Below are positions 33,037 through 33,648 of a stretch of DNA of 64,000 nucleotides, one piece after another. This DNA is from Escherichia coli (GTDB taxonomy: Bacteria > Pseudomonadota > Gammaproteobacteria > Enterobacterales > Enterobacteriaceae). Location: assembly GCF_030013205.1 (NCBI RefSeq), contig NZ_CP122648.1; one strand, 5' to 3'. The position numbers and the translations under genes were made by a program. Under the pieces are notes generated by a model. It was not told the DNA's origin. It did no database searches and was given only the letters and a program-made list of their open reading frames with translations. Numbering within the stretch: position 1 is the first letter of the stretch; each line of letters opens with the position of its first letter.

Positions 33037-33648
33037 TTACCCAATTTTTGAACTGTCTTTAAGATGAATATTACGGATAAGAAAACGAATGTAGTTATCG
33101 TTTTTAGATTCCCAGTGCGTATATTTACCAACTATGCTATTATTTTCTGACTGCCAGTGATCGAATGCTGTCTGTCCACTTATATTTTTATGATTAATGT
33201 CGCAACCAGCCTCAATTAGTGCATCGTACACATATCCTTCAAATGGAATGAAAAGAAAGGAATTGCCATAGCTATCTTTGGTATGGATATCTAGTCCTGC
33301 TTTGATAAGATATTTTACTAACCCTGGTGAAACATCAATATGTTGAATCGCAAGGGTGCCTGACTTATTCCGGTGGTTAACATTAATACCATTGCTGACA
33401 AGAAGTTCCACTGTTTCAACATTTTGAGCATAGAATAATGCATTATTACCGTCATTATCCAAGTGGTGAATGTCAATGTCAGCGTCAATCATTGCCTGTA
33501 TAGCTTCAGGTACATTACAGGTAAAAAGAGCAGTTTGACCTTTACTATTGCACATATTTATATCCATGCCAGCCTTAAGGCAACGAAGGACACCATTTTT
33601 AGACTTTACACGGAATAGGTTATTTTTATTATTTTCTCTTGATATCAT
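33037..33648 (-). CDS. Ankyrin-repeat protein (C-terminus runs into IS1 terminal repeat)
   Basis: 203 aa with about 4 ANK repeats (…DGNNALFYAQNVETVELLVSNGINVNHRNKSGTLA…); stop codon lies inside the IS1 right inverted repeat; AT-rich 460-bp upstream region. Confidence 0.7.
   Translation of the reverse strand: MISRENNKNNLFRVKSKNGVLRCLKAGMDINMCNSKGQTALFTCNVPEAIQAMIDADIDIHHLDNDGNNALFYAQNVETVELLVSNGINVNHRNKSGTLAIQHIDVSPGLVKYLIKAGLDIHTKDSYGNSFLFIPFEGYVYDALIEAGCDINHKNISGQTAFDHWQSENNSIVGKYTHWESKNDNYIRFLIRNIHLKDSSKIG

Follow-up and report, generated by a model that had tools for sequence, protein, structure and literature searches.

An ankyrin-repeat gene apparently truncated by IS1 in a decaying ssrA island of Escherichia coli

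In the 64,000-nucleotide stretch of Escherichia coli DNA analyzed here (the window), a truncated ankyrin-repeat gene, ank1, occupies positions 33037–33648 of the minus strand, between two copies of IS1. The 612-nt gene starts with ATG, encodes 203 amino acids, and is preceded by a well-matching Shine–Dalgarno sequence (AAGGAGATAAACA-ATG), the core AAGGAG of which lies 5′ of the ATG. Ankyrin-repeat proteins (Pfam clan Ank) are recognized by tandem helix-turn-helix repeats of about 33 residues that match Ank profiles above the gathering score. The window protein scores above it and belongs to this clan, with matches to Ank_4 (1.3e-17), Ank_2 (7.6e-14), Ank_5 (3.5e-10), and Ank (1.2e-5) that lie far above threshold. 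At the identical locus of strain ETEC1748, RefSeq annotates the product as 'ankyrin repeat domain-containing protein' (WP_242378982.1).

The stop codon of the ORF is TAA (TTA on the plus strand, 33037–33039), located 2 bp inside the right terminal repeat of the left IS1, and two-thirds of the bases of the last codon, GGG (Gly), also belong to IS1. A preliminary description of this DNA had placed the stop codon within the IS1 repeat and had proposed that the native C-terminus was lost to the insertion sequence. Both points are upheld by comparison with full-length ank1, which encodes 328 aa in strains 81, E423, and ETEC6333 and continues past the break point. The window protein consists of residues 1–202 of the 328-aa protein (100% identical to the ETEC6333 allele over this length) plus one IS1-encoded Gly. 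The truncation is also backed by distant relatives (29–45% identity), which have the C-terminal domain. The window gene is an IS1-truncated remnant comprising the front two-thirds of ank1. Its ANK domain is complete and is still followed by the linker helix, but the conserved C-terminal α/β domain of about 125 aa and the basic tail are gone. Because the conserved C-terminal domain is absent, we regard this copy as a functionally disabled pseudogene.

The native AT-rich intergenic region 5′ of ank1 (33649–34077, minus strand) was ancestrally the spacer between kwaB and the ankyrin gene, and holds the Shine–Dalgarno sequence. It is collinear with strains 81 and E423 at 96.6–97.9%, and kwaB ends in those strains at the position equivalent to 34078. 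The AT-richness noticed upstream of the ORF in the preliminary description is real (30% G+C over 33500–33999). A hairpin at about 34034–34069 (−16.8 kcal/mol, z = −3.7) is probably the kwaB terminator. A promoter scan upstream of the ORF found promoter-like sites to be no commoner than in shuffled sequence, and an Rfam search of 31500–35500 found no RNA family. The ribosome-binding site and the upstream region of the gene are its native ones, so it may still yield an ANK-only polypeptide.

Members of the IS1 family are about 768 bp long, have imperfect terminal inverted repeats of about 23 bp, and carry insA and insB′ joined by a frameshift at A6C. The left copy (32274–33041, plus strand) has all of these features: it is full-length (768 bp), with both terminal repeats, intact insA/insB′ frames and the A6C slippery site, and is annotated in ETEC1748 as 'IS1 family transposase, programmed frameshift'. 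The right copy (34113–34847, plus strand) is a variant of 735 bp with both terminal repeats and an internal deletion of insA, and has the same orientation as the left copy. Both copies begin with GGTGATGCTGCC and end with CATTACC, and so form direct repeats around the 203-aa ORF, at exactly the coordinates given for them in the preliminary description. They are 92.9% identical over aligned bases. The deletion in the right copy is 33 bp long, in frame, and located at 34353, between short direct repeats (TGGCGTnGG). As insA encodes the DNA-binding part of the IS1 transposase, the deletion probably disables this part of InsA/InsAB′. The two copies are not sister copies. The left copy is flanked by GATGTTCTG and CAATTTTTG and the right copy by CCAGGAAGG and AAATAGTTT; no 9-bp target-site duplication was found at either copy or around the pair as a unit. 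The right IS1 is annotated in the listed records carrying this island type and is present in the other island lineages inspected (WCHEC020031, AR_0069, and ETEC6333), which points to an older event.

The locus is what remains of a genomic island, with the tmRNA gene ssrA (47523–47885) and a tyrosine integrase gene (46127–47437) marking its limit on one side. In K-12, ssrA is the site of CP4-57. On the other, chromosomal side lies a ygaQ-like α-amylase pseudogene (30580–32273, minus strand), which adjoins glaH-lhgO-gabDT and has lost its 5′ end at the left junction of IS1. This gene matches Pfam Alpha-amylase_C, has a 2,253-bp version in other lineages, and is described by RefSeq in ETEC1748 as 'alpha-amylase family glycosyl hydrolase, incomplete, missing N-terminus'. 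To the right of the IS1 pair, hsdR (34878–38116, minus strand), encoding a type I restriction subunit, is split into ORFs of 294 and 807 aa by the loss of one base (T7 to T6 at 37300–37306). The gene is intact (3,240 bp, T7) in ETEC1748, ETEC6333, and WCHEC020031, and the T6 run of the window is due either to a true inactivating frameshift or to a sequencing error in the homopolymer. The island backbone beside the integrase (42509–45844) encodes a large serine recombinase of 518 aa and two tandem ParB/RepB-like proteins; the window has an intact copy of the second ParB gene, which is annotated as frameshifted in ETEC1748.

The intact form of the island is found in E. coli strains 81 and E423, with the order integrase ... 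hsdM-hsdS-hsdR, kwaA-kwaB, ank1, a gene for a 146-aa protein, ank2, a nikA-like gene, and a relaxase gene, followed by further backbone genes. The spacer between kwaB and ank1 is AT-rich and 430 bp long, and ank2 encodes a 314-aa ankyrin paralogue of ank1. The 146-aa gene has no family match. In L002 (7865–10607) and L009 (8001–11093), it is bracketed by ank1 and ank2 directly upstream of the nikA-like/relaxase operon. PADLOC recognizes both Kiwa proteins in the ancestral island (KwaB, 3.4e-164; KwaA, 2.5e-95). Window positions 33042–34113 align to L002 10001–11072, and those from 34848 onwards align to L002 from 12634 onwards. The right IS1 stands in place of L002 11073–12633, a segment of 1,561 bp that holds kwaB and kwaA. 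A 35-bp 3′ remnant of kwaB (34078–34112, minus strand) is left in the window, the remainder of kwaB and the entire kwaA gene having given way to the right IS1. A Kiwa system is defined by the gene pair for KwaA (membrane) and KwaB (DUF4868); of this pair the window has only the 35-bp remnant, and neither Kiwa model matches the ankyrin protein. The ankyrin protein is a neighbor of Kiwa in intact islands and not one of its components.

The window shares with the integrative mobilizable defense islands at ssrA in Enterobacteriaceae a tyrosine integrase gene beside the tmRNA gene, ParB-like genes, and AT-richness, and its intact relatives share with them the NikA-like/relaxase genes and a cargo of type I restriction–modification (R-M) and Kiwa. 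Unlike these islands, the window remnant has no relaxase half, and its Kiwa genes are replaced by IS1. As far as can be judged from sequence, it is no longer mobilizable.

The distribution of the locus was surveyed in 5,426 complete E. coli genomes. The segment between the two IS1 copies (1,071 bp; the N-terminal part of ank1 and its upstream region) occurs at 312 places in 310 genomes, all of them chromosomal. The segment deleted from the window (1,251 bp) is complete in only 80 genomes, and just the same 222 bp of it are left in about 220. The exact arrangement of 5′-truncated ygaQ, IS1, truncated ank1, IS1, and hsdR (3.5 kb) is present in six genomes, with 100% identity and at one locus. 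These six carriers are porcine ETEC isolates (ETEC1748, 4067, 4069, 4070, 4071, and 4079), clonal and all from one study. Breaks of other kinds are seen elsewhere. An IS2 end interrupts ank1 at codon 276 in WCHEC020031 (L001 7738–7767), and this IS2 was later hit by IS3. In AR_0069, the gene is broken at codon 276 via a different junction (L006 4129–4210), with ygaQ only about 95 bp away. Decay of ank1 was thus independent in other lineages, the break at codon 276 being due to IS2 in those of the WCHEC020031 type. Plasmid and phage records searched for the ankyrin gene contained no carrier. A phage origin of the gene was considered and rejected, the only matches being weak, ANK-level ones to Wolbachia phage WO.

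The porcine ETEC strains ETEC6333 and ETEC6334, which are nearest to the window lineage, are informative about the course of the truncation. The left junction, at which IS1 joins ygaQ (GTAGATGTTCTG followed by GGTGATGCTGCC), is identical in the window and in these strains, and the left IS1 is the same, yet in ETEC6333/6334 ank1 and the 146-aa gene are intact. In ETEC6333, the right end of the left IS1 abuts ank2 about 62 nt after the start of the gene. Relative to this state, the window is without exactly 1,255 bp (L005 5579–6833), and the gap starts at the last base of the left IS1. A later IS2 insertion with a 5-bp duplication (CTCAA) is located 13 bp to the left in ETEC6333. This strain represents a sister of the window lineage and is not a proven ancestor.

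These comparisons are consistent with a stepwise process. An IS1 variant would have replaced kwaA-kwaB in the porcine ETEC lineage, and a second IS1 would then have joined the 5′-truncated ygaQ to about codon 21 of ank2, a state kept in ETEC6333/6334. In the window lineage, a 1,255-bp deletion extending from the right end of the left IS1 would subsequently have taken out the 146-aa gene together with what was left of ank2 on one side and the final 126 codons of ank1 on the other, after which the IS1 terminal repeat would have supplied the last codon and the TAA. Overall, ank1 is very probably cargo of an ssrA island eroded by IS1, with the window ORF as the remnant left by stepwise deletion. 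A deletion that starts at an IS end, with the IS retained and no target duplication, is a classical outcome of IS1 intramolecular transposition. Because in the window the missing segment is anchored at an IS1 end, the IS1 and its other junction are kept, and no target duplication is present, we infer from this end-state that the 1,255 bp were lost by such an adjacent deletion. The same product would result if another IS1 had inserted at codon 202 and IS1–IS1 recombination had followed. The window resembles the classical IS1-promoted deletions (gal/IS1) in that the deletion begins at one end of IS1, the IS1 stays in place, its other junction is unchanged, there is no target duplication, and a gene–IS fusion with a stop codon in the terminal repeat results. 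It differs from them in that the event is deduced from its end-state and known from sequence alone.

Direct IS1 copies on both sides of a single gene, together with the intact transposase frames of the left copy, are what would be expected if the unit were a composite transposon like Tn9 (IS1-cat-IS1) mobilizing an ankyrin cargo, and the preliminary description had called it composite-transposon-like. Such an element should be surrounded by a target-site duplication of 8–9 bp and should recur at different loci or replicons. However, there is no 9-bp duplication around the unit or around either IS1, the outer flanks (GATGTTCTG and AAATAGTTT) being different, and the copies have diverged to 92.9% identity, the right one carrying the 33-bp deletion in insA. 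A check for the IS1-ank-IS1 unit at other places found it solely on the six chromosomes (6 of 5,426 genomes), each time with ygaQ on one side and hsdR on the other, and the inter-IS DNA was never on a plasmid. Moreover, both junctions correspond to deletions within a collinear ancestral island. The likeness to Tn9 is therefore superficial: a direct IS1 pair around one gene is shared, whereas the window unit has no flanking duplication, is bordered by divergent IS1 copies of which one is partly deleted, and sits at a single chromosomal site where it was formed by the loss of ancestral DNA. A composite transposon is rejected as extremely unlikely, and the deletion remnant described above is the reading followed below.

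The family to which full-length ank1 belongs was defined with a profile built from the last 145 residues of ank1 and ank2, which gave 27 matches among 1.84 billion representative proteins. Several of these matches are spurious repeat proteins (those with multiple stretches in long proteins look spurious, and P0013, which was inspected, is a repeat protein); the true relatives with a named source come from E. coli, Salmonella, Klebsiella, and Raoultella. The homologues from word-indexed searches were for the most part fragments. The full-length members have four to eight ankyrin repeats, a C-terminal domain of about 125 residues that is conserved in homologues at 29–45% identity, and a short basic tail ending in (K/R)(K/R)RL or GGRL. 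From these matches, the family appears to be small, uncharacterized, and confined to islands of Enterobacteriaceae. Intact alleles show a dN/dS of about 0.2 (from small counts), which indicates that selection maintains the full-length gene in genomes that still have it. The contexts of homologues show the family to be cargo of mobilizable islands carrying defense systems. P0022 (29% identity) adjoins kwaA-kwaB in a related island that keeps the NikA-like/relaxase backbone, though in another position and orientation. The island around P0012 is associated with an integrase and also has radical-SAM/HxsD genes, and P0011 is preceded by a 146-aa gene, as is ank2. Literature searches found no paper on the ankyrin family or on its link with Kiwa.

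An AlphaFold model of a full-length homologue, built with a 23-sequence alignment (mean pLDDT 84.6, pTM 0.75) and superseding a single-sequence AF2 model (pLDDT 46), has an ANK solenoid of about five helix-pair repeats (residues ~7–166), a low-confidence loop (170–180), a linker helix (179–192), an α/β domain (202–315), and a disordered tail. In this model, residue 202, where IS1 breaks the protein, belongs to the first strand of the C-terminal domain, and so the window product would correspond to the whole ANK domain alone. Neither Pfam (E ≤ 10) nor a PDB profile search gave a credible match to the C-terminal domain, and structure searches with the whole model returned ankyrin proteins only. 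The likeness to Ank proteins with known roles (Bdellovibrio Bd3460, the Legionella/Coxiella Ank effectors, and the poxvirus ANK/PRANC proteins) lies in the ANK solenoid as a protein-binding module and, for the poxvirus proteins, in the joining of ANK repeats to a small C-terminal domain. Unlike these proteins, the intact family has a C-terminal domain that matches no Pfam or PDB family, and, unlike the Legionella/Coxiella effectors, it has no secretion context.

In the intact protein, the ANK solenoid most likely binds a protein partner, and we commit to the view that the C-terminal domain would provide the output. Judging by context, the likeliest role of the intact protein, at about even odds, is in the conflict between mobile elements, phages, and hosts. 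Assignment to a known defense system by PADLOC-DB takes a full-length match to a defense-system protein model, and the ankyrin protein gave only partial matches over the ANK repeats (PDC-M72A, 8e-11, residues 19–100; MzaA, 1e-4; Ankyrin, 1.5e-3). Identity with a known anti-phage defense protein was rejected on these repeat-level matches, and their confinement to the repeats places the family outside described defense systems. The three genes from ank1 to ank2 in strains 81 and E423 immediately precede the nikA-like/relaxase operon and are oriented towards it, in the place where oriT is expected. A comparable position and orientation have been described for the anti-defense genes in the leading regions of plasmids (PMC11541004). 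On the basis of this position and orientation beside the relaxase operon and of the general plasmid pattern, the intact family that joins ANK repeats to the C-terminal domain (ank1, ank2, and their relatives) might represent a new establishment or counter-defense class of ssrA-type mobilizable islands. Otherwise, ank1, the 146-aa gene, and ank2 might be an undescribed defense cassette beside Kiwa. We consider these proposals rather unlikely. The disordered basic tail (..K/R-K/R-R-L) could serve as a signal for transfer via the type IV system of a helper. Under either the establishment/counter-defense or the defense-cassette reading, what the window carries would be the dead remains of such a gene.

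Two further readings give the ankyrin gene a different role. The 203-aa ANK-only product might be made and be useful, for example by sequestering the partner of the full-length protein, so that the allele is retained. The window copy keeps the native upstream region, the Shine–Dalgarno sequence, and the complete ANK domain with the linker helix, and bacterial ANK-only proteins can inhibit enzymes; the Bdellovibrio immunity protein Bd3460 is among the fold matches. However, the allele exists only in six near-identical genomes, so that its retention is untried by time, and the C-terminal domain is conserved throughout a family whose intact alleles are under overall purifying selection. Island neighbors decay too, with kwaAB lost, hsdR frameshifted, and ank1 broken by IS2 elsewhere, and we give a useful ANK-only product just a small chance. 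Secretion as an effector aimed at eukaryotic host cells, as for the Ank proteins of Legionella and Coxiella, is very unlikely. This role, raised in the preliminary description, would accord with the ankyrin repeats, with the host strain being an intestinal pathogen, and with the disordered basic tail of intact members (..KKRL, ..KRRL), which is loosely reminiscent of the type IV secretion signals found at C-termini. However, neither the window nor the inspected intact islands contain a secretion system, and the N-terminus, by inspection, is hydrophilic and has no hydrophobic signal-like stretch. The gene stands beside R-M and Kiwa genes in mobilizable islands of commensal, environmental, and pathogenic strains alike, and the window copy has lost the C-terminal tail entirely.

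The window ORF is an ordinary IS-generated remnant of a gene, already annotated and located in an ssrA island undergoing decay. The locus is a clear and datable example of the stepwise erosion of a defense island by IS1 in a porcine ETEC clone, in which Kiwa was lost, the ankyrin gene clipped, and hsdR frameshifted. Wider interest attaches only to the intact family, with its unassigned C-terminal domain and its recurrence beside Kiwa and relaxase genes on mobilizable islands. The junction between IS1 and ank1 could be used as a lineage marker. Elsewhere in the window (59869–61095), the diguanylate cyclase gene dgcN is split into ORFs of 296 and 103 aa, and the annotation of ETEC1748 gives it as a pseudogene interrupted by an internal stop.
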